This document shows positions 3,244 to 61,807 of a DNA stretch of 64,000 nucleotides, piece by piece. The notes beneath the pieces are model-generated. The model was given only the letters and a program-made list of their open reading frames with translations, made no database searches and was not told where the DNA came from. The first letter of the stretch is position 1. The number at the start of each line of letters is the position of its first letter. Source of the stretch: an uncultured Anaerolineae bacterium (GTDB lineage Bacteria > Chloroflexota > Anaerolineae > JAFGEY01); contig CAZLMZ010000001.1 of the NCBI GenBank assembly GCA_964560475.1, forward strand, positions 538-64,537. Reading direction: 5' to 3'. Made by a program: the position numbers and the translations under genes.

Positions 3244-6200
3244 ATGCCCGGTAAGGAGCAAGGCTCGGAAACTGCAACTCGCATCCAGAAACAGGAGCCG
3301 CGGACATCATCCGAGGGGATCGAGGCAGCGCAGGCACTAGCTCGGGAGCAACGGGCCGCGCTGGGTGCGGCGCGGGAGCGGTCCGTCCTGAGCTACCTGG
3401 ATGTACAGGATGAGGTGCTGACGCAAGCGTACCGGTACTTTGTGGAGCGATCAGAGACCGACATCTCGATCTCGTACGCCGGTGAGTGGATGCTGGACAA
3501 CTTTTACGTCGTACAGCAGACGCTGCGGCAGGTCCAGAAGGATATGCCCGACCGGTACTATCGTGAACTCCCGGTACTCGTCGACACGGATGCTGCGGGC
3601 CACCCACGCGCCTATGCACTTGCGCGCGAGATTGGGCGTTCTTCCCCGAATGGCATCGACATGGACAGGCTGCGAGCTTTTGTGCACGCTTACCAGTCGG
3701 TGAGGTCGCTCACGATGGGGGAGCTGTGGGCACTGCCAACGATGCTGCGTATCGTCGAGCTGGAGTACGTGACCTCGGCACTGCTCAAGATCGCTGATCT
3801 TGGGCCTATAGATGACGAGGATGCACTTTACGCTCTCACACCATTGGCTCAGGACGCGTCGAACGAGCAAGTGGTGGCAAACGGGATCCGAAGCCTGCAC
3901 GTGCTGCTCAACCAGGACTGGGAGAGCTGGTTCGAGGAGCTCAGCCAAGTCGAGCAGACCCTTCGTGAAGATCCAGTCGGCATCTACCCTCATATGGACT
4001 TTGAGACACGCGACCTGTATCGCAAGCGTGTAGAGACGCTGGCCAAGGGGACCGGCAGGGAGGAGGTGGAGATTGCAGAGGCGGCGGTCGAGCTAGCGAT
4101 AGAGAATCGCTCGCTAGCGGTCGAGGGGACCGAACCGGTGGCAACCGTAGAGCGTACGGCGCACGTAGGTTATGTGCTGGTAGGTAGTGGGCGCGATGGT
4201 CTGGAGGAGCGGCTGGACTATCGTCCGCCGTGGAAAGTGCGCATGCGGCGCTGGCTCGCCGCGCAGGCTACAGCCTTCTATTTCGGTGCCATCTCGGTCT
4301 CGACGCTGGGCGTGCTTACGCTGCTACTGCTGTACGGCCTCTGGGAAGGCGGCGCTCTATGGGTGTTGGTACTCGTTGGAGTGGTCAGCCTGATCCCGGC
4401 TTCTGCCGTAACCGTCGATGTGATCAACTGGTTGCTCACGCGCTTTGTCCCACCGCGGATGCTGCCCAAGATGGACTTCTCAGAAGGAGTGCCTGAGGAA
4501 TACACGACGATGGTCGTGATCCCCGCGCTGCTGAGCAGTGAGTCGGACATCCAGGCTCTGTTACAGCAGATCGAGCTACACTACCTGAGCAACGACGACC
4601 CAAACCTGCACTTTGCCTTGCTTACTGATTTCGCCGATGCCCCCGCGCAGGACATGCCGGAGGATGAGGCTCTGCTCGACAGGGCCAGCGCTGGCATCCG
4701 GCAGCTCAACCGGGCTCACGCGCGCGAGGGCGCAGACCCGTTCCACCTGTATCACCGCAGGCGGAAATGGAACGCGGCCGAGGAGACGTGGATGGGCTGG
4801 GAGCGCAAGCGTGGCAAGCTGTCCGAGTTCAACCAACTCCTGCTTGGGGAAGACGACACCTCCTATATGCTCAAGCTCGGAGACCAGCAAGCGCTATCGC
4901 GGGTGCGCTATGTGATCACACTCGATGCCGACACCTCACTGCCGCGGGACAGCGCACGGCGTCTCGCCGGCACGATGGCTCACCCGCTGAACAGGGCCAC
5001 CTTTGACTCTGAATCGGGGCGGGTAGTCTCTGGTTACACTGTGCTCCAGCCGCGGACAGAGATCAAGCCGACGAGCGCCAACCAGTCGCTCTTTGCCCGA
5101 GTGTATTCCGGCGACGTGAACCTGGACCTGTATTCGCGCGCGGTGTCTGACGTGTACCAGGACGTCTTTGGGGAAGGCATCTATGTAGGAAAGGGCATCT
5201 ATGACGTCGCGGCGTTCCAGAAGAGCCTGGATGGGCGTGTGCCAGAGAACGCTCTGTTGAGCCACGACCTCTTCGAAGGCGTGCACGGTCGCGCGGCGCT
5301 GGTGACCGATATCATTCTCTACGAGGACTATCCGCCCCACTATCTCGCCTATGCTCACCGCATGCACCGCTGGGTCCGGGGTGATTGGCAGCTCCTGCCA
5401 TGGCTGCTGCCGGGAGTACCGCACGAGACAAAGGGGAGCATTCGTAACGTGTTGTCCGTGCTCGACCGCTGGAAGCTGATCGATAACCTGCGGCGCAGCC
5501 TGACGCTCCCGTCGGTGCTGGCGCTGCTCATATGTGGCTGGCTGATCTTCCCTGGGGCCCCGTGGCTCTGGACAGTGATAGGGGCTGCCGTCGTCGGAGT
5601 GCCCCTGGTCACGTTGGGCATCTCGGCCGTGGTCGAGGGGGTCACAACTGGAGGCGGGATAAGGGAGAACATACGAGGGCTGCGTGATGACGCACTGCGT
5701 TGGCTGCTCGCGCTCGCGTTCATGCCATACCAAGTACTGATCACGATCGATGCCATCGGGAGCACGTTCGTCCGGCTGTTCGTCACGCATCGGCACCTGC
5801 TACAGTGGACCACAGCAGCTCACACGGTCAGCCTGTTCGGGCGAAAGATGCAGGTGGGTGTCATCTGGCTGCGGATGGGGGGAGCACCGCTAACGGCAGT
5901 GGCAGCAGGGATCCTGGTGGGCTTTGTGGCGCCCAGGTCGCTGGGCCCCGCGATCCCCTTACTCGTGGCCTGGGTGCTGTCGCCACAGATCGCACACTGG
6001 ATCAGCAGGCCGATCGAGCAGGTCAAGGAACATCTTCCAGCCGGGGCCTACGTCCGGCTGCGGCACCTCGCTCGCCGGACGTGGCTCTATTTCGAGCGCT
6101 TTGTGGGACCTGAAGACCACTGGCTGCCGCCAGACCACTATCAGGAGGAACCGCTCGGCGTGGTCGCTCATCGCACCTCGCCAACCAACATCGGCCTGTT

Positions 6201-32363: not shown

Positions 32364-33128
32364 TCAGGCGTTGCGTTCAGCGATGATGCGCAGACCGTCC
32401 AGCGTCAACCAGGGCTCGATCGCGGCAAACTCGTTGCTGAGGGGAGGGATGACGCTCGCCAAGCCTCCAGTCGCAATGGCAAGCGCCTGGCCTCCCATCT
32501 CGGCGCGCATGCGCCGGATGAGTGCCTCCACCAGGCCAACGTATCCATACACGACGCCCGACTGAATGGAGTGCGTGGTGTTCCGTCCGATGGCGGCTGC
32601 CGGGGGAGTAAGTTGCACGCGCGGCAGTTGGGCGGTCTGGCTGGAAAGCGAGGCTGCGGCTGTATTCAGCCCGGGAGCGATCGCCACACCGAGCAGGTCG
32701 CCCGGCACGGCGACCGCAGTGAAGGTGAGCGCCGTGCCAAAGTCGACGACGATGCAATTCCGCTCGAACCGCGCATAGGCAGCGACCGCGTTGGCGACGA
32801 GATCCGCTCCGACCTCCGAGGGGTTGTCCGTGCGAATCCGGATCCCGGTTCGTACTCCAGGTCCCACGATCAGGGGAGGGCGCGCCATCTCTTCGCCGAG
32901 CATGCGCACAAGGGCGTCGGTGACGGGAGGGACGACGCTGCTCAGCACGGCCCGGTCGATCTCGCCTATGGCAATGCCGCTTTCACGGAATAGACTATGA
33001 AACAACACACTGTACTCGTCGGGCATCTGGTCGGGTACGGTGCGGATGCGCCAGTGGTCGGTCCACTGCCCTCCCCGGTGTATGCCAAAGGCGACGTTGG
33101 TGTTTCCGACGTCGATTGCGAGTAGCAC
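32364..33128 (-). CDS. coaX: type III pantothenate kinase
   Basis: MLLAIDVGNTNVAFG ... the ASKHA fold. It is the last gene of the ECF transporter operon. Confidence 0.85.
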   Translation of the reverse strand: MLLAIDVGNTNVAFGIHRGGQWTDHWRIRTVPDQMPDEYSVLFHSLFRESGIAIGEIDRAVLSSVVPPVTDALVRMLGEEMARPPLIVGPGVRTGIRIRTDNPSEVGADLVANAVAAYARFERNCIVVDFGTALTFTAVAVPGDLLGVAIAPGLNTAAASLSSQTAQLPRVQLTPPAAAIGRNTTHSIQSGVVYGYVGLVEALIRRMRAEMGGQALAIATGGLASVIPPLSNEFAAIEPWLTLDGLRIIAERNA

Positions 33129-33193
33129 AGATCCTCCTATGGGTACACCAAACCTGCCGAGCGAGCTACCTGGTGCATGCGCGACGGCTGCAC

Positions 33194-33973
33194 CTAGAGG
33201 TAGCTCGCGCCTACCACGACCAGGGCCATCCCAGCCGTGACCAAGGCAGCAACTGCATCATGCCAGCTCAGGTGAAGCTGCCGTAGGCTGGTCCGCTGAG
33301 AGCCACCACGATAGCCGCGCGCTTCCATTGCTGTAGCTAGCTGCTCGGCCCTTTGGAAGGCCAGCACAAATATCGGGACGAATACAGGTACCCAGCTCTG
33401 CACGCGTTCCAGGGGGTTCCCTGTCGGGTCTGCTCCTCGTGCGCGCTGTGCTGTCATGATCCTATCGACCTGATCCGAGATCGTGGGCACAAAGCGCAGG
33501 GCAATGGTCATGACCATCGACACCTCCGGGACTGGCAGCCCGATCTGAGTCAACGGGGAGAGGGTCGCCTCCAGTCCGTGCGCCAACTGGCCCGGCGAGG
33601 TGGTGTAGGTGAGCAGTGAGCTAATGACGACGAGCAGGCAGAGCCGGTAGATCAGGACTCCTCCAGCAAGCAACCCGCTCAGCGTGACCGAGATGCTGCC
33701 CACGCTGACAAGCGGCTCGCCTGGGGTCGTGAACGCGTAAAAGAAGAACATCACGAACCCGATCCAGAAGATGGTGTAGATGGTCCGCAGCAGCGACAGG
33801 AGCGGCACCTTGGCGAGCAGCGCAATGCCAATGACGAACGCCGCCAGCAGCAATCCTCCTGCAACGCTAGGTGCGTAGAAGGGCAGCACCATCAGTACGA
33901 GCGCCACGGCGAGCTTGGCTCGCGGATCCAGCCTATGAACGACAGTTTCGTCAGGAACGTACATACCTGGCAT
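33194..33973 (-). CDS. ecfT: energy-coupling factor transporter transmembrane component EcfT (CbiQ family)
   Basis: Polytopic. The start is placed at MPGMYVPDETVVHRLDPRAKL, immediately after the ecfA' stop. The upstream part of the track ORF 33194..34264 overlaps ecfA' and is not coding. Confidence 0.8.
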   Translation of the reverse strand: MPGMYVPDETVVHRLDPRAKLAVALVLMVLPFYAPSVAGGLLLAAFVIGIALLAKVPLLSLLRTIYTIFWIGFVMFFFYAFTTPGEPLVSVGSISVTLSGLLAGGVLIYRLCLLVVISSLLTYTTSPGQLAHGLEATLSPLTQIGLPVPEVSMVMTIALRFVPTISDQVDRIMTAQRARGADPTGNPLERVQSWVPVFVPIFVLAFQRAEQLATAMEARGYRGGSQRTSLRQLHLSWHDAVAALVTAGMALVVVGASYL

Positions 33974-33981
33974 GAGGAGAC

Positions 33982-34848
33982 TCAAGGCCGGCCTCCTCGT
34001 GCCTGCCACGCGCGGTAGATCTCGGCAGCCGCCTCTTCTGGCAGCACGCGGTCGGTCTGCACCGGCCAGCCAGCAGCCTCGAGGCGATGCAGCAGGACGA
34101 CGGGGGCCGGAGCGCTGAGCCCCGCGTTGGCAAGCGTCTGGCGATCGCTCAGTACGGCGCGCACTGGCCCGTCGGCGATGATCTGACCCGCGTTGAGAAT
34201 CGCCGCCCGGTCGACTACCCGTACGATCTGTCCGAGGTCGTGCGAAACAATGACCAGCGTGCACTGGGTCTCGGAGTGCAGCTCATTGACCAGATCGAGA
34301 AGCTCGCGCCGGCCGCTGGGGTCCAGCCCTGCAGTTGGCTCGTCGAGGATGAGCACGTCGGGGCGCAGGCTCAGGATGCTGGCCAGCGCTACACGCCGCA
34401 TCTCCCCGCCGCTGAGCGTAAAGGGGGAACGGTGGGCGAATGTCTCCGGCGGCAGGCCGACGCGGTTTAGCGCCCAGTGCACTCTCTGCTCGACCTCTGC
34501 ACGAGGAAGGCGCAGTCTTTTCGGGCCGAAAGCGACCTCGCGGAAGACGGTTTGCTCAAAGATCTGTTCCTCGGGGTATTGGAGGGCAAGGCCGATACGC
34601 CTGCGTTGGCTGCGCGTCCTGGAGGAGCGTGTCCGCAGAACGACATCGTCCAGGCGAACCTTGCCGGCAGTTGGCACCAAGAGCCCAGCCAGGATCTGGG
34701 CCAGCGTAGACTTGCCTGAACCGGTCGGCCCGAGGATCCCTATGCGTTCGCCCGGCGAGATTGCCAGGTCAATACCGTGCAGCGCCATGTGGCTGAGCGG
34801 CGTACCTGCGTTGTAGGTGTGCGATACGCCTAGGAGCTCAATGTGCAC
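33982..34848 (-). CDS. ecfA2: ECF transporter ATPase EcfA' (second ABC ATPase)
   Basis: Walker A (GPTGSGKST), the signature (LSGGEMRRVALA) and Walker B (ILDEPTAGLD). The start is placed at a GTG (VHIELLGVSH) preceded by GAGGG. The 484-aa track ORF upstream of this is an overlap artefact. Confidence 0.75.
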   Translation of the reverse strand: MHIELLGVSHTYNAGTPLSHMALHGIDLAISPGERIGILGPTGSGKSTLAQILAGLLVPTAGKVRLDDVVLRTRSSRTRSQRRRIGLALQYPEEQIFEQTVFREVAFGPKRLRLPRAEVEQRVHWALNRVGLPPETFAHRSPFTLSGGEMRRVALASILSLRPDVLILDEPTAGLDPSGRRELLDLVNELHSETQCTLVIVSHDLGQIVRVVDRAAILNAGQIIADGPVRAVLSDRQTLANAGLSAPAPVVLLHRLEAAGWPVQTDRVLPEEAAAEIYRAWQARGGRP

Positions 34849-35672
34849 AGCACCCTCGCCATATCGTCCACGGTCTGTAGATCTGGTGGCAGTGGCACGC
34901 CCCACCCAACGAGGCGATGCGCGATCTCGACCACAGGGGGCAAGTCCAGGCCAAGCGATCGCAGCCGGGCGGGCTCGGCAAAGATGCGCGTTGGTGGTCC
35001 ATCCGCCACGATACGCCCGCGGTGCATCACGAGCAAGCGGCCGGCGAGGGCGGCCTCCTCCATCGACTGTGTGATGAGGATAGTTGTCGTCTCGTGCTCC
35101 GTATTGAGCATCTTGATCGTGTCGAGCACGCGCTCGCGACCAGATGGGTCGAGCATCGAGGTTGGTTCGTCGAATACGATGCACGCAGGCTGCATCGCGA
35201 GCACGCCGGCGATGGCCACCAACTGCTTCTGCCCGCCAGAAAGCAGGTAGGGAGGGCGCGTCGCGTAGCCGGCCAGACCCACGGCATCCAGCGCAGCATC
35301 CACGCGTGCGCGGATCTCGGCTGGTGGGACGCCAAGGTTCTCGAGCCCGAAGGCGACGTCTTCCTCCACGGTGCTGGCGACGAGCTGGCTGTCGGGATTC
35401 TGAAATACCATCCCGACCTGCTGGCGGATTCGCCACCTGTCGCGGGGCTCGGCGGTGAGCATGCCAGACACCCAGACCTCACCAGAAGTGGGCATCAGGA
35501 GGCCGTTCAGATGCTGGGCAAGGGTAGACTTGCCCGATCCATTCGGCCCCACGATACCCACGAACTCGCCGTGGTGCAGGTCGAGATCGATCCCATCCAG
35601 GGCAGCGATCGGTACGCCAGCGTCAAACACGTACGTGTGACGCAACGCGCGGATACGGATGAGAGGCTGCAC
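34830..35672 (-). CDS. ecfA1: ECF transporter ATPase EcfA
   Basis: Walker A (GPNGSGKST), the signature (LSGGQKQLVAIA) and Walker B (IVFDEPTSMLD). Confidence 0.85.
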   Translation of the reverse strand: MQPLIRIRALRHTYVFDAGVPIAALDGIDLDLHHGEFVGIVGPNGSGKSTLAQHLNGLLMPTSGEVWVSGMLTAEPRDRWRIRQQVGMVFQNPDSQLVASTVEEDVAFGLENLGVPPAEIRARVDAALDAVGLAGYATRPPYLLSGGQKQLVAIAGVLAMQPACIVFDEPTSMLDPSGRERVLDTIKMLNTEHETTTILITQSMEEAALAGRLLVMHRGRIVADGPPTRIFAEPARLRSLGLDLPPVVEIAHRLVGWGVPLPPDLQTVDDMARVLCTLSS

Positions 35673-35681
35673 CGACCTGGC

Positions 35682-36275
35682 CTAATCCCGTGCTGCAGCG
35701 ATGCGAGCCCGACCCAAGGCCCGAAGCGCGGCGAGCGTGGGAATCGTCACAACTAGGGCCAGGGCAACCTCGATCGGGACGTTCATCGTAAACACGGGCA
35801 CGAGTAGCGAGACCGGAAGTGTGCCGAGCCAGATCAGGATGCCCAGCACGCCAAAGGTGTTGGTCAGCGTACCTACGAGTCCCGCCAGGGCAGCAGCAGC
35901 CGGGGGCCACCGCCGCAAGGGGCGATACGCATAGTAGGCCAGAACACCGATCAGGATCCTGGGCAGAAAGGCCGCGAGCAGCGCTACAAAGAGGTTACCG
36001 TTCGCGAAGGTGAGGTAGGTGGGACTGTAAAGATACCAGGTAGAGACGGCAAGCACCAGCCCGACCAACCCGCCGACGATCGGGCCAGACAGCAACCCGG
36101 CAATGATCGCTGGCAAGTGCAGGCTAGTAGCAGCCTCTGTTGGATTGGGCACGGGGATCAGCCCAAGTGGGGTAAAGGCCAGGACTATGGCTAGTGCGCC
36201 AAAGATGCCGGCGACGGCGATATCCTGTGTACTGATGCGCGGCCGCTTGGGGCCCTGACGCGGTTCGTCTTCCAT
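35682..36275 (-). CDS. ECF transporter substrate-specific S component (substrate unknown; pantothenate suggested by operon context)
   Basis: A 197-aa protein with 5-6 TM segments and a Gly/Ala-rich composition. It is the first gene of an operon S-ecfA-ecfA'-ecfT-coaX. Confidence 0.7.
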   Translation of the reverse strand: MEDEPRQGPKRPRISTQDIAVAGIFGALAIVLAFTPLGLIPVPNPTEAATSLHLPAIIAGLLSGPIVGGLVGLVLAVSTWYLYSPTYLTFANGNLFVALLAAFLPRILIGVLAYYAYRPLRRWPPAAAALAGLVGTLTNTFGVLGILIWLGTLPVSLLVPVFTMNVPIEVALALVVTIPTLAALRALGRARIAAARD

Positions 36276-36474
36276 AGCTACATTCCTCTCGGTCTCGCAT
36301 GGGGTGTCCGGGGATCTGCAGCCAGGAAGAACCGGTCGCCGCGAATCGCGGCTTGACGACGCGGGCCCTGCATTTGACCGTCTCGGTCACGGCTGTGATC
36401 CCAGCGGTACACCAAACGCACTTGACTCGACTAGATGCTGCTCGCAGCCGACTAGGCCAGTCTGCGGCAGACAG

Positions 36475-36503
36475 ATTATAGCACGTCACACTACGGTATG
36501 CAA
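36475..36503 (-). promoter_or_regulatory. sigma70-type promoter candidate (TTGCAT-17-TATAAT) driving the ECF operon; followed by a ~190-nt leader
   Basis: On the minus strand, TATAAT occupies 36480-36475 and TTGCAT occupies 36503-36498, with a 17-nt spacer. Confidence 0.4.
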
Positions 36504-36522: not shown

Positions 36523-37632
36523 TCACAACAAGTCTTCCACCGGCATATACTCCAGGGTCCAGGCATCGGCAACGGAGCAGTACGTGACGTGACCCTGGTA
36601 GGTGTTGATCCCCCTGGCGAGCCCCGCATCGTGCTGCAGGGCACCCTCGACGCCGTGTGCAGCGAGCCGGGTGATGTAGGACAGCGTCGCGTTGCTGAGG
36701 GCATAGGTGCTGGTGCGTGGCACTGCACCGGGCATGTTGGCGACGCAGTAGTGGATCACACCATCAACCAGAAAGATCGGGTCTGAGTGTGTGGTGGGGT
36801 GTGAGGTCTCGACGCAGCCGCCTTGGTCCACGGCGACGTCGATGACCACGCTACCGGGGGCCATCGTGCCGATCATGGACCGTGTGACGAGCTTGGGTGC
36901 CTTGGCGCCCTTGATCAGTACCGCCCCAATCATCAAGTCGGCGCGGCGGACGGCCTGCGCGATATTCAGCGGGTTCGAGCTGAGCGTCGTCAACCTGCCG
37001 CCGAGGACGTCGTGGAGATAGCGTAAGCGGTCGATGTTGATGTCGATGATGATCACGTGAGCGCCCATGCCCAGCGCGACCTGGGCGGCGTTGGTGCCCA
37101 CGGTGCCAGCGCCGATGATCACGACATCCGCCGGACGTACTCCCGGCACACCACCGAGGATCTTGCCCCGGCCGCCGTTCATCTTTTCCATATAGTGCGC
37201 GCCGATCTGGACGGCCATCCGCCCCGCGACCTCGCTCATCGGCGTGAGCAACGGCAGGTGGCCGTTCGGCAGCTCGACCGTCTCGTACGCAATGCCCGTT
37301 ACCTCGTGGGATACCAGCGCGCGAGTCAGTTGCTCGTCAGCCGCCAGGTGCAGGTAGGTGAATAGGGCGAGTCCTGACCGCAGGAACTCGTACTCTTGCG
37401 GAAGCGGCTCCTTGACCTTGACGACCAGCTCTGCCGACCAGGCGTCCGCACTGCGCGGCACGATCTTGGCGCCAGCCTCAGCATACTCCTGGTCGGTAAA
37501 GCCACTGCCTTCTCCTGCCCCGCTTTCCAGCCAGACCTCGTGGTCCATCTGGGTCAGGTGGTGGACGCCGCCCGGCGTCATGGACACGCGGTACTCGTTA
37601 TCCTTGATCTCGCGCGGTACGCCGATGATCAT
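36523..37632 (-). CDS. ald: alanine dehydrogenase
   Basis: MIIGVPREIKDNEYRV... and an NAD motif (VVIIGAGTVGTNAA). A GAGGAGG RBS sits 7 nt upstream of the internal ATG; the longer track ORF is not used. Confidence 0.85.
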   Translation of the reverse strand: MIIGVPREIKDNEYRVSMTPGGVHHLTQMDHEVWLESGAGEGSGFTDQEYAEAGAKIVPRSADAWSAELVVKVKEPLPQEYEFLRSGLALFTYLHLAADEQLTRALVSHEVTGIAYETVELPNGHLPLLTPMSEVAGRMAVQIGAHYMEKMNGGRGKILGGVPGVRPADVVIIGAGTVGTNAAQVALGMGAHVIIIDINIDRLRYLHDVLGGRLTTLSSNPLNIAQAVRRADLMIGAVLIKGAKAPKLVTRSMIGTMAPGSVVIDVAVDQGGCVETSHPTTHSDPIFLVDGVIHYCVANMPGAVPRTSTYALSNATLSYITRLAAHGVEGALQHDAGLARGINTYQGHVTYCSVADAWTLEYMPVEDLL

Positions 37633-61525: not shown

Positions 61526-61601
61526 TGGCGCGCCCGGCGGGACTCGAACCCACAACCTTCGCTTTCGTAGAGCGGTGCTCTATCCATTGAGCCACGGGCG
61601 C
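61526..61601 (-). tRNA. tRNA-Arg (anticodon ACG), CCA encoded
   Basis: Cloverleaf folded by hand: 7-bp acceptor stem GCGCCCG/CGGGCGC, D-arm GCTC/GAGC, anticodon loop CU-ACG-AA, T-loop TTCGAGT, terminal CCA. Confidence 0.85.
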
Positions 61602-61615
61602 ACATTCGTTATCAG

Positions 61616-61705
61616 CGGGGAGGCAGGGATTCGAACCCTGGAAGGAGCTTTTGACCCCTTAACCGCTTAGCAGGCGGCCCCATTCGACCACTCTGGCACC
61701 TCCCC
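61616..61705 (-). tRNA. tRNA-Ser (anticodon GCU), type II with long variable arm, no encoded CCA
   Basis: Acceptor stem GGGGAGG/CCTCCCC, anticodon loop CU-GCU-AA, long variable arm, T-loop TTCGAAT. Confidence 0.85.
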
Positions 61706-61720
61706 TTGGCTGTTCTGCAG

Positions 61721-61807
61721 CGGAGGGAGAGGGATTCGAACCCCCGGTGACCTTGCGGCCACAACGGTTTTCAAGACCGCCGCCATCGTCCACTCGGCCA
61801 TCCCTCC
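61721..61807 (-). tRNA. tRNA-Ser (anticodon UGA), type II, no encoded CCA
   Basis: Acceptor stem GGAGGGA/TCCCTCC, anticodon loop CU-UGA-AA, long variable arm, T-loop TTCGAAT. Confidence 0.85.

Follow-up and report, generated by a model that had tools for sequence, protein, structure and literature searches.

Which vitamin is imported by a dedicated energy-coupling factor (ECF) transporter operon of an uncultured Anaerolineae bacterium, and what is the structured leader in front of its first gene? The operon was located on the minus strand at positions 32364–36503 of a 64,000-nucleotide stretch of contig CAZLMZ010000001.1 (the window), and was composed of five co-directional genes encoding an S component, EcfA, EcfA′, EcfT, and CoaX. 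The features of the operon and its leader are all given on the minus strand. The leader is a tandem pan motif (Rfam RF01749), an unannotated copy of a known element and not a new RNA class. We estimate a probability of roughly 0.8 that it acts as the cis-acting sensor of an operon that imports pantothenate (PanT-ECF) and phosphorylates it (CoaX), with expression set by an effector.

Identification of the leader as a tandem pan motif

The initial annotation had presented the leader as a structure that matched no known class, whereas it corresponded to the pan motif described in 2010 (PMC2864571; RF01749). The hairpins of this motif occur mostly in tandem, upstream of panB, panC, or the aspartate decarboxylase gene, in three phyla (Weinberg et al. 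2010, PMC2864571), and the tandem arrangement is usual outside the delta-proteobacteria. The published motif and the leader of the window shared stems with two conserved bulged A residues, located 5 bp apart on opposite strands, and a tandem layout in which the second hairpin followed the consensus CYGC-YKGGAUC...GACCRRGACRG. They also shared a location in the 5′ untranslated region of vitamin-B5 genes, often with a terminator afterwards, and hosts belonging to the Chloroflexi. The three host phyla are reportedly the Chloroflexi, Firmicutes, and delta-proteobacteria. In the Dehalococcoides rows of the published alignment, the hairpins read UGCCACCGACC..GGCGGUGAGC and, further on, CCGCUUGGAUCG..CGGCCGAGACGG, which were nearly the two hairpins of the window.

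A covariance model was trained solely on 46 published second-hairpin pan sequences. When both strands of the 64 kb were searched, the best match was found at 36407–36374 (24.6 bits, E = 2.2e-4), the next best match reached 13.5 bits, and no second match fell below E = 0.3. When 30 Anaerolineae loci were searched with the same model, each gave exactly one match ahead of its S gene, and no other match was found in 330 kb.

Differences from the published motif were also observed. The motif was published with panB, panC, and aspartate decarboxylase genes only, whereas in the window and in at least 30 Anaerolineae metagenome-assembled genomes (MAGs) it preceded a PanT-type ECF importer and coaX. 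The leaders of this lineage also showed a probable additional helix that flanks hairpin 2, and G faced G at a position that is U-U or U-G in the Firmicutes.

Structure and covariation of the two hairpins

Pan hairpin 1 (HP1; 36440–36468) was formed by the paired segments GC/GC, CGCAG/CUGCG, and CUGG/UCGG. From its base, the pairs G36468-C36440 and C36467-G36441 were followed by the bulged A36442, a 5-bp helix, the bulged A36461, and a distal 4-bp stem. Pan hairpin 2 (HP2; ACCGCUGGGAUCAC-AGCC-GUGACCGAGACGGU, 36377–36408) was supported by the covariance model, Rfam, and RNAalifold. In its proximal part, ACCG paired with CGGU, and the bulged A36381, a C-G pair, and a U-A pair led to G36402 and G36384, which stood unpaired face to face. 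The distal part contained two G-C pairs, the bulged A36399, and UCAC paired with GUGA, and was closed by the loop AGCC. HP1 was located 31 nt upstream of HP2 in the window, counted to the outer A-U pair of HP2; in relatives the spacer, measured to the conserved CCG, was mostly 20–60 nt and at most 83 nt.

An alignment by eye of the 300-nt regions preceding the S gene in related loci showed a common order, with a sigma-70 promoter, a hairpin, a variable spacer, and a near-invariant second element. The first hairpin of the relatives, GCCACGGACC...GGCCGUGAGC, was located 6–7 nt past the promoter and corresponded to GCCGCAGAC...GGCUGCGAGC in the window. The second element was near-invariant across the loci as CCGCUGGGAUC-[short stem-loop]-GACCGAGACGG. 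RNAalifold, applied to a MAFFT alignment of 13 leaders chosen by locus alone, predicted precisely HP1 and HP2, and the bulges and the G-G position appeared as unpaired columns.

HP1 was evaluated by an architecture scan, by covariation counts, and by RNAalifold, because MAFFT realignments of the published tandem and of hairpin 1 were too poor for covariance models. Of 124 loci, 91 had the perfect HP1 architecture in the 130 nt that precede HP2, compared with ~2% of shuffled or random stretches. It was also present in 26 of the 27 loci that had been gathered by protein homology alone and had enough upstream sequence. Among 68 distinct HP1 sequences, which were preselected for perfect pairing so that full pairing holds by construction, all nine pairs changed on both sides. 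The number of compensatory cells was 68, against 15.8 ± 2.9 in shuffles, and none of 500 shuffles reached 68. On the question of conservation and covariation raised in the initial annotation, the leader was conserved and its first hairpin covaried at every pair.

U-G and G-U pairs were frequent in HP1 in the sense orientation only (21 of 66 sequences at one pair), which argues for an RNA rather than a DNA operator. The inverted repeats would otherwise be read as operators of a dimeric transcription factor just past the promoter, since the first repeat begins 6 nt after the −10 box, the classical position for a repressor. On the other strand, however, the U-G and G-U pairs are A-C mismatches. 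The asymmetric single-base bulges were conserved, HP2 was located ~60–90 nt into the transcript, and loops varied in length between 5 nt and over 40 nt, with extensions of the stem that compensated for this. Operators in the DNA are therefore hardly credible as an explanation of the repeats.

HP2 was probably clamped by a flanking helix (PF), which lies outside the published motif. The predicted 5′ strand (UGCGUUUG, 36413–36420) would pair with the 3′ strand (CAAAUGCA, 36369–36376), as 36420–36413 with 36376–36369. The cognate flanks gave −8.03 kcal/mol, compared with −6.48 ± 0.27 kcal/mol for permuted flanks, and none of 2000 permutations was as low. Compensating changes were visible when loci were compared: the window has GCGUUUG/CAAAUGC, the Thermoflexus-like loci have CUUUCC/GGAAAG, and two further loci (L123 and L128) have CACGUUCU/GGAAUGUG.

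A small hairpin, CACCG-CUUUC-CGGUG, located just upstream of HP2, was also considered. It was dropped in favour of PF, which covaries, because it was conserved neither in the Thermoflexus-like loci nor in the window. In one Anaerolineales locus (L023, ~90–125), a variant first hairpin, GCCGGGUGACACACCCGGCUUGAGC, lacked the canonical bulged-A layout, and hairpin 2 was canonical.

Promoter, leader, and ribosome-binding site

The −35 hexamer TTGCAT (36498–36503) matched TTGACA at three of six positions and was followed, after a spacer of 17 nt, by an extended −10 element, TGcTATAAT (36475–36483; TATAAT at 36480–36475, TG at 36483–36482). The consensus promoter scanner omitted this promoter because of its poor −35 hexamer. 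In relatives, TTGACA-17-TATAAT occupied the equivalent place, 6–7 nt ahead of hairpin 1, compared with 6 nt in the window. The transcript would start ~6 nt past TATAAT, at the foot of HP1, which implies a leader of ~193 nt. The ribosome-binding site GAGAGGAA was located at 36283–36290, 7 nt ahead of the ATG at 36275. Thus the promoter at 36503–36475, the leader of ~190 nt before the S gene, and the ribosome-binding site named in the initial annotation were all found, the first with an extended −10 element and with counterparts in relatives.

The proposal that the leader is a structured cis-regulatory RNA also held. The fold of the leader was better than that of all 200 dinucleotide shuffles (z = −3.3), the leader was kept in every Anaerolineae locus having upstream sequence, and the hairpins covaried as described above.

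The most conserved octamer of hairpin 2, GACCGAGA (36388–36381), was repeated at 36294–36287 over the ribosome-binding site (GACCGAGAGGAA). This second copy was not conserved in relatives and may be a chance occurrence or a mimic specific to the window. A third pan-like hairpin around it was rejected, since its pairing failed when checked by eye.

Six Thermoflexus-like loci (L004, L007, L013, L014, L016, and L028) were without the sigma-70 promoter seen elsewhere. The same six loci contained a perfect inverted repeat of ~15 bp, GAGGTGACAGTCACCT-(4 nt)-AGGTGACTGTCACCTC, located ~10–45 nt upstream of HP1 (in L013, ~4700–4745), which may act as an operator or may terminate transcription of the preceding gene. 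In addition, three to seven tandem units of 9–10 nt, CCTTGTATC, were present in the 5′ untranslated region of the S gene in seven Thermoflexus-like loci (L011, ~100–170; L004, L007, L013, L019, L025, and L028). These repeats sat between the pan element and the ribosome-binding site, and their copy number differed among loci.

Candidate expression platform

Downstream of HP2, a GC-rich hairpin, GUCG-ucaa-GCCGCG-auu-CGCGGC-GAC (36360–36335), with the tail CGGUUCUUCCUGG (together 36322–36360), was present at minimum energy and also when the two pan hairpins were enforced. The initial annotation had singled out a perfect hairpin at 36338–36352 as the structure of interest in the leader. The palindrome GCCGCGAUUCGCGGC was indeed present at 36352–36338, inside the GC-rich hairpin, but the conserved core of the leader was located upstream, at 36468–36369, and the palindrome occupied the position of the terminators of relatives. 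The GC-rich hairpin is therefore probably the expression platform and not the sensor. Its tail, CGGUUCUUCC (UUCUUCC), was a poor U tract.

In many relatives, a GC-rich hairpin and a U tract were located ~20 nt downstream of the second element, and nine relatives had canonical intrinsic terminators at +20 to +23 nt past HP2. Terminators were also seen by eye in several loci of the panB, S58, and DUF2520 types. In the portion of the published annotated pan alignment considered here, a predicted terminator follows at least one pan RNA, in a Caldicellulosiruptor row. In a thermodynamic model, the terminators of relatives formed at a probability of 0.87–0.99, whether HP2 was favoured or disfavoured, and no RNA-only antiterminator was visible in the modelled leaders.

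These terminators bear on another explanation, in which the conserved hairpins would not be a sensor but would constitutively stabilise the 5′ end or mark it for processing, the 5′-terminal hairpin shielding the mRNA from 5′-dependent decay, and the operon would not be regulated through its leader. Hairpins at the 5′ terminus stabilise mRNAs in other systems, and in every locus with a promoter HP1 stood at the extreme 5′ end of the transcript as predicted. However, a stabiliser would need neither invariant bulged A residues, nor a conserved internal sequence, nor a second hairpin, and the motif was specific to one metabolic pathway across phyla. Moreover, a terminator was typically located between the motif and the gene. 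A purely stabilising role is accordingly very improbable.

A second candidate part of the platform was the segment GGCUGCAGAUCCCCGG (36307–36322), a putative switching or anti-Shine-Dalgarno sequence whose complement comprises the 5′ strand of HP2 and the HP2 loop. In the predicted fold of lowest energy, 36322–36307 paired with 36404–36391; once HP2 was enforced, its partner was the ribosome-binding region instead. Enforcing both pan hairpins raised the energy by only 2.8 kcal/mol over that minimum.

Assignment of the transporter substrate

Pantothenate had been proposed as the substrate of the S component in the initial annotation, by association with the kinase gene. A profile of the S family, built from 54 diverse homologues, was compared with chains of the PDB, and the matches to 4RFS_S (E = 1.5e-30) and 6ZG3_C (E = 8.4e-24) were by far the strongest. 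These are the structures of Lactobacillus brevis PanT and of Lactobacillus delbrueckii ECF-PanT, respectively (PMC7755397), and the profile spanned both PanT chains at full length. The other vitamin S components matched the same profile at E values of 1e-6 (RibU), 0.018 (BioY), and above 0.5 (ThiT). The S sequence by itself gave no match to the PDB chains, so that the family profile was needed.

NCBIfam contains no PanT-specific model, the S component passed no subfamily cut-off, and members of the S family gave only sub-threshold matches to FolT and ThiT. The nearest relatives of the S component were Anaerolineae MAG proteins with 77–99% identity.

The genomic linkage was conserved as well. 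The genes ecfA and ecfA′ followed the S gene in 28 of 32 genome loci with protein matches, and a coaX match was found further along in 21 of the 32. The latter include a Thermovenabulum MAG of the Firmicutes, in which the S gene was 42% identical and coaX was directly next to it. An additional pointer to pantothenate as the cargo is that type III pantothenate kinase (PanK-III) does not accept pantetheine as a substrate (PMC12570885).

Because both PanT structures outscored RibU, BioY, and ThiT by a wide margin against this profile, the S component is well supported, from homology and coaX linkage, as a PanT-like pantothenate importer. The comparison with these four families, which the initial annotation had suggested, thus placed PanT far ahead, no other vitamin family fitted better, and the proposed substrate is well supported. 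PanT-like is accordingly a suitable annotation for the S component of this operon, which is widespread in the Anaerolineae.

When compared with ECF-PanT (4RFS and 6ZG3), the operon of the window likewise encoded a PanT-like S component together with EcfA, EcfA′, and EcfT. In the lactobacilli, a single ECF module serves both PanT and other S components (group II), whereas the window operon provided the S gene with its own ECF module and coaX, in a dedicated, group-I-like layout.

Nature of the effector

The leader is proposed to control the operon in the following way. An effector that reports the sufficiency of pantothenate or CoA would bind the quasi-symmetric hairpins HP1 and HP2, and the bound effector would set the fraction of transcripts that pass the attenuator and are translated. 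The platform would be provided by the GC-rich hairpin at 36360–36335 and by the segment at 36322–36307, through its two possible partners, the 5′ strand of HP2 and the ribosome-binding region. In this way, the uptake of vitamin B5 and the first step of CoA synthesis could be controlled together and in step with the biosynthesis of pantothenate. At the least, the tandem pan element is taken as the sensor of a leader that controls read-through, translation, or both. The transcription start, the switching helices, the kind of effector, and the direction of control belong to the proposal, whereas the observations comprise the gene identities, the conserved leader, the structure and covariation of its hairpins, their membership in the pan family, and the neighbouring genes.

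The effector may be a dimeric RNA-binding protein, which we tentatively regard, at somewhat less than even odds, as a little likelier than the direct binding of a small molecule. A protein is favoured because the hairpins are quasi-two-fold symmetric, the layout is tandem, and the terminators form constitutively. The discoverers of the motif likewise took the pseudo-two-fold symmetry of the hairpins to suggest a site for a dimeric protein (Weinberg et al. 2010, PMC2864571). The pan motif is not known to have an associated regulator of the CAT/PRD type and is unrelated in sequence to the ribonucleic antiterminator (RAT) sites. The apparent resemblance to the RAT of the BglG/LicT system lies in a quasi-symmetric bulged hairpin upstream of an otherwise constitutive terminator, which would suit a dimeric RNA-binding domain. 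However, the RAT overlaps the 5′ strand of its own terminator, whereas HP2 of the pan motif ends ~20 nt before it.

The hairpins might instead form a true riboswitch that binds a small molecule of the CoA pathway directly and without a protein, a reading that we consider rather unlikely but that has several points in its favour. The core nucleotides were strongly conserved across Firmicutes, delta-proteobacteria, and Chloroflexi, a non-Watson-Crick position was invariant within the middle helix, and no regulator gene was seen adjoining the element. The controlled genes serve the synthesis, uptake, and phosphorylation of one vitamin, as for classical vitamin riboswitches. Tandem small hairpins can act as riboswitches, for example those of guanidine-II. 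PanK-III is not feedback-inhibited by CoA (PMC12570885), and control at the level of expression would fill this gap.

On the other hand, the published in-line probing detected no response to pantothenate, CoA, or beta-alanine at 1 mM, although it covered one Geobacter construct and three compounds, and its authors allowed for inactive constructs. The motif is very simple and quasi-symmetric, and those who discovered it leaned towards a protein site. The modelling gave no alternative to the terminator that would depend on a ligand. In addition, the motif has been an orphan for 16 years, and a literature search found no validated riboswitch for CoA or pantothenate.

Candidate ligands for a riboswitch would be 4′-phosphopantothenate, 4′-phosphopantetheine, dephospho-CoA, and acyl-CoA; since coaX and the importer are among the controlled genes, the ligand would be made after the pantothenate kinase step. 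More generally, pan control of coaX and the importer, together with the lack of CoA feedback inhibition of PanK-III, suggests that the signal, whatever its receptor, reports the status of the CoA pathway past the kinase, and that this is likelier than pantothenate itself.

CoA is one of the few universal cofactors without a known RNA sensor (Kavita and Breaker 2022). That the pan motif is this missing riboswitch, with 4′-phosphopantothenate, 4′-phosphopantetheine, dephospho-CoA, or a CoA thioester as its ligand, is doubtful; none of these was among the three compounds probed in 2010. If it were so, the high-GC Anaerolineae version with the flanking helix (36469–36365) would be better behaved for a ligand search. 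In either case, an element that has been an orphan since 2010 is narrowed to a short list of ligands or to a protein pull-down.

Observations against an effector-set sensor

The assignment of the leader as a pan-type sensor with effector-set expression has to be weighed against several results. With regard to structure, HP2 was almost invariant in the Anaerolineae and showed little covariation of its own, so that its structural support comes from the wider family. With regard to the platform, neither of two scans called the GC-rich hairpin of the window a terminator, and its U tract was degenerate. Judged by duplex energies, the downstream segment was no more complementary to the HP2 strand than shuffles were. 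The accessibility of the ribosome-binding site of the window was 0.34 in all three modelled states, and across 31 leaders the modelled accessibility shifted marginally (p ~0.05). With regard to the effector, no candidate binding protein is known for the pan motif. With regard to family membership, RF01749 scored 15.0 bits (E = 1.6) on a 111-nt slice and missed the gathering threshold of 36.2, and a search of a 501-nt slice against Rfam at E ≤ 10 gave no match.

The results from Rfam were examined further. RF01749 was the top Rfam family on the 111-nt slice, and its alignment placed hairpin 2 correctly and misplaced hairpin 1. At gathering thresholds, the window and 15 related loci gave tRNAs and RNase P only; in the window the matches were a cluster of three tRNAs (61529–61807, minus strand) and nothing else. 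A sequence-only nhmmer profile of the published alignment ranked hairpin 2 first, yet at E = 2 and 4.8 bits, which was not significant. The Rfam filters fail on the leader because the sequence-only signal amounts to just 4.8 bits, and the sub-threshold score is taken as a limit of the model and not as evidence against homology. The Rfam pan model thus misses a whole lineage of the Chloroflexota, the leaders of which go unannotated.

A classical four-strand translational switch was also considered for the window. The required pairings existed, but this switch was rejected on account of the shuffle-level duplex energies and the marginal shift in accessibility.

Organization of the operon

The family models of the five genes agreed with a dedicated ECF transporter operon that terminates in a type III pantothenate kinase gene, as the initial annotation had described it. 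The PanT-like S component (197 residues; 35682–36275) matched PF12822 (E = 2e-19). The first ATPase, EcfA (34830–35672), passed the cut-off of 315 bits of TIGR04520 with 339 bits. The starts of the next two genes were re-read from the flanking sequence. EcfA′, the second ATPase (33982–34848), was corrected to a GTG start at 34848; its best match was TIGR04521 with 311 bits, computed on 33982–34836 and just below the family cut-off of 330. EcfT (33194–33973), corrected to an ATG start at 33973, matched PF02361 (E = 1.8e-46). The last gene, CoaX (32364–33128), was confirmed as a type III pantothenate kinase by two curated models, PF03309 (227 bits) and NF009855 (278.5 bits), and exceeded both cut-offs (24.7 and 233 bits, respectively).

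The genes had been described as tightly packed, and this was correct for the first three junctions, with a gap of 9 nt between the S gene and ecfA, an overlap of 19 nt between ecfA and ecfA′, and a gap of 8 nt between ecfA′ and ecfT. The ecfT–coaX junction was different, with a gap of 65 nt (33129–33193) instead of 8–10 nt and with its own GGAGG ribosome-binding site. A site scan found no promoter-like or terminator-like site in this spacer. Upstream of the operon, an alanine dehydrogenase gene ended at 36523.

Genes downstream of the pan element in other loci

Metagenome contigs were scanned with the exact pattern GCTGGGATC-N(4–34)-GACCGAGACGG, which gave 120 stretches, 99 of them with the expected base-paired prefix. 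The first downstream gene among these 99 encoded PanB in 24 loci, an ECF S component in 18, Peptidase_S58 in 15, and EcfA in 13. A Rossmann/DUF2520 protein, which we take to be of the PanG ketopantoate-reductase family, was encoded in 4 loci, CoaX in 2, and PTS IIB in 1. In 14 loci no gene was recognisable, several of these being chance matches in coding regions, and in 8 loci too little sequence was left. The operon of the window serves uptake and phosphorylation, not synthesis; its genes differ from those published for the motif but belong to one and the same pathway, and the same hairpin stands before panB in the 24 metagenome loci.

No link of pan to the ECF PanT importer, coaX, or S58 peptidases appeared in the original description of 2010 with its supplements, in a regulon survey from 2013, in a review of riboswitches from 2022, in a paper on CoA in B. 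subtilis from 2024, or in a CoA review from 2025 (the Rfam gene-context pages and RegPrecise lay outside this coverage). Within this literature, PanT-ECF-coaX is a new gene context for a motif that has itself been known since 2010. Three kinds of genes thereby join the set of the pan motif, namely those for an ECF importer of the PanT type, for the type III kinase, and for S58 peptidases.

In the 15 Peptidase_S58 loci, which came from marine and other metagenomes, a promoter, a tandem pan element, and a terminator preceded a DmpA/BapA-like gene (loci L040, L046, L055, L060, L070, L074, L076, L081, L102, L130, L133, and L150 among them). This arrangement suggests that the S58 gene encodes a beta-aminopeptidase that supplies beta-alanine for pantothenate.

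Variations in the transporter part were also observed. The pan leader stood directly before ecfA, without a preceding S gene, in some lineages (L080, L153, L067, L069, L093, L116, L124, and L132), and in L080 and L153 it was followed by a fused EcfA-EcfA′ of ~600 residues. In L085 and L050, coaX came directly after the pan leader. Finally, at L089 (~2092–2180), a single HP2 with flanks of the Anaerolineae type preceded, by 58 nt, a PTS IIB gene of the sorbose family, the sole neighbour unrelated to the CoA pathway.

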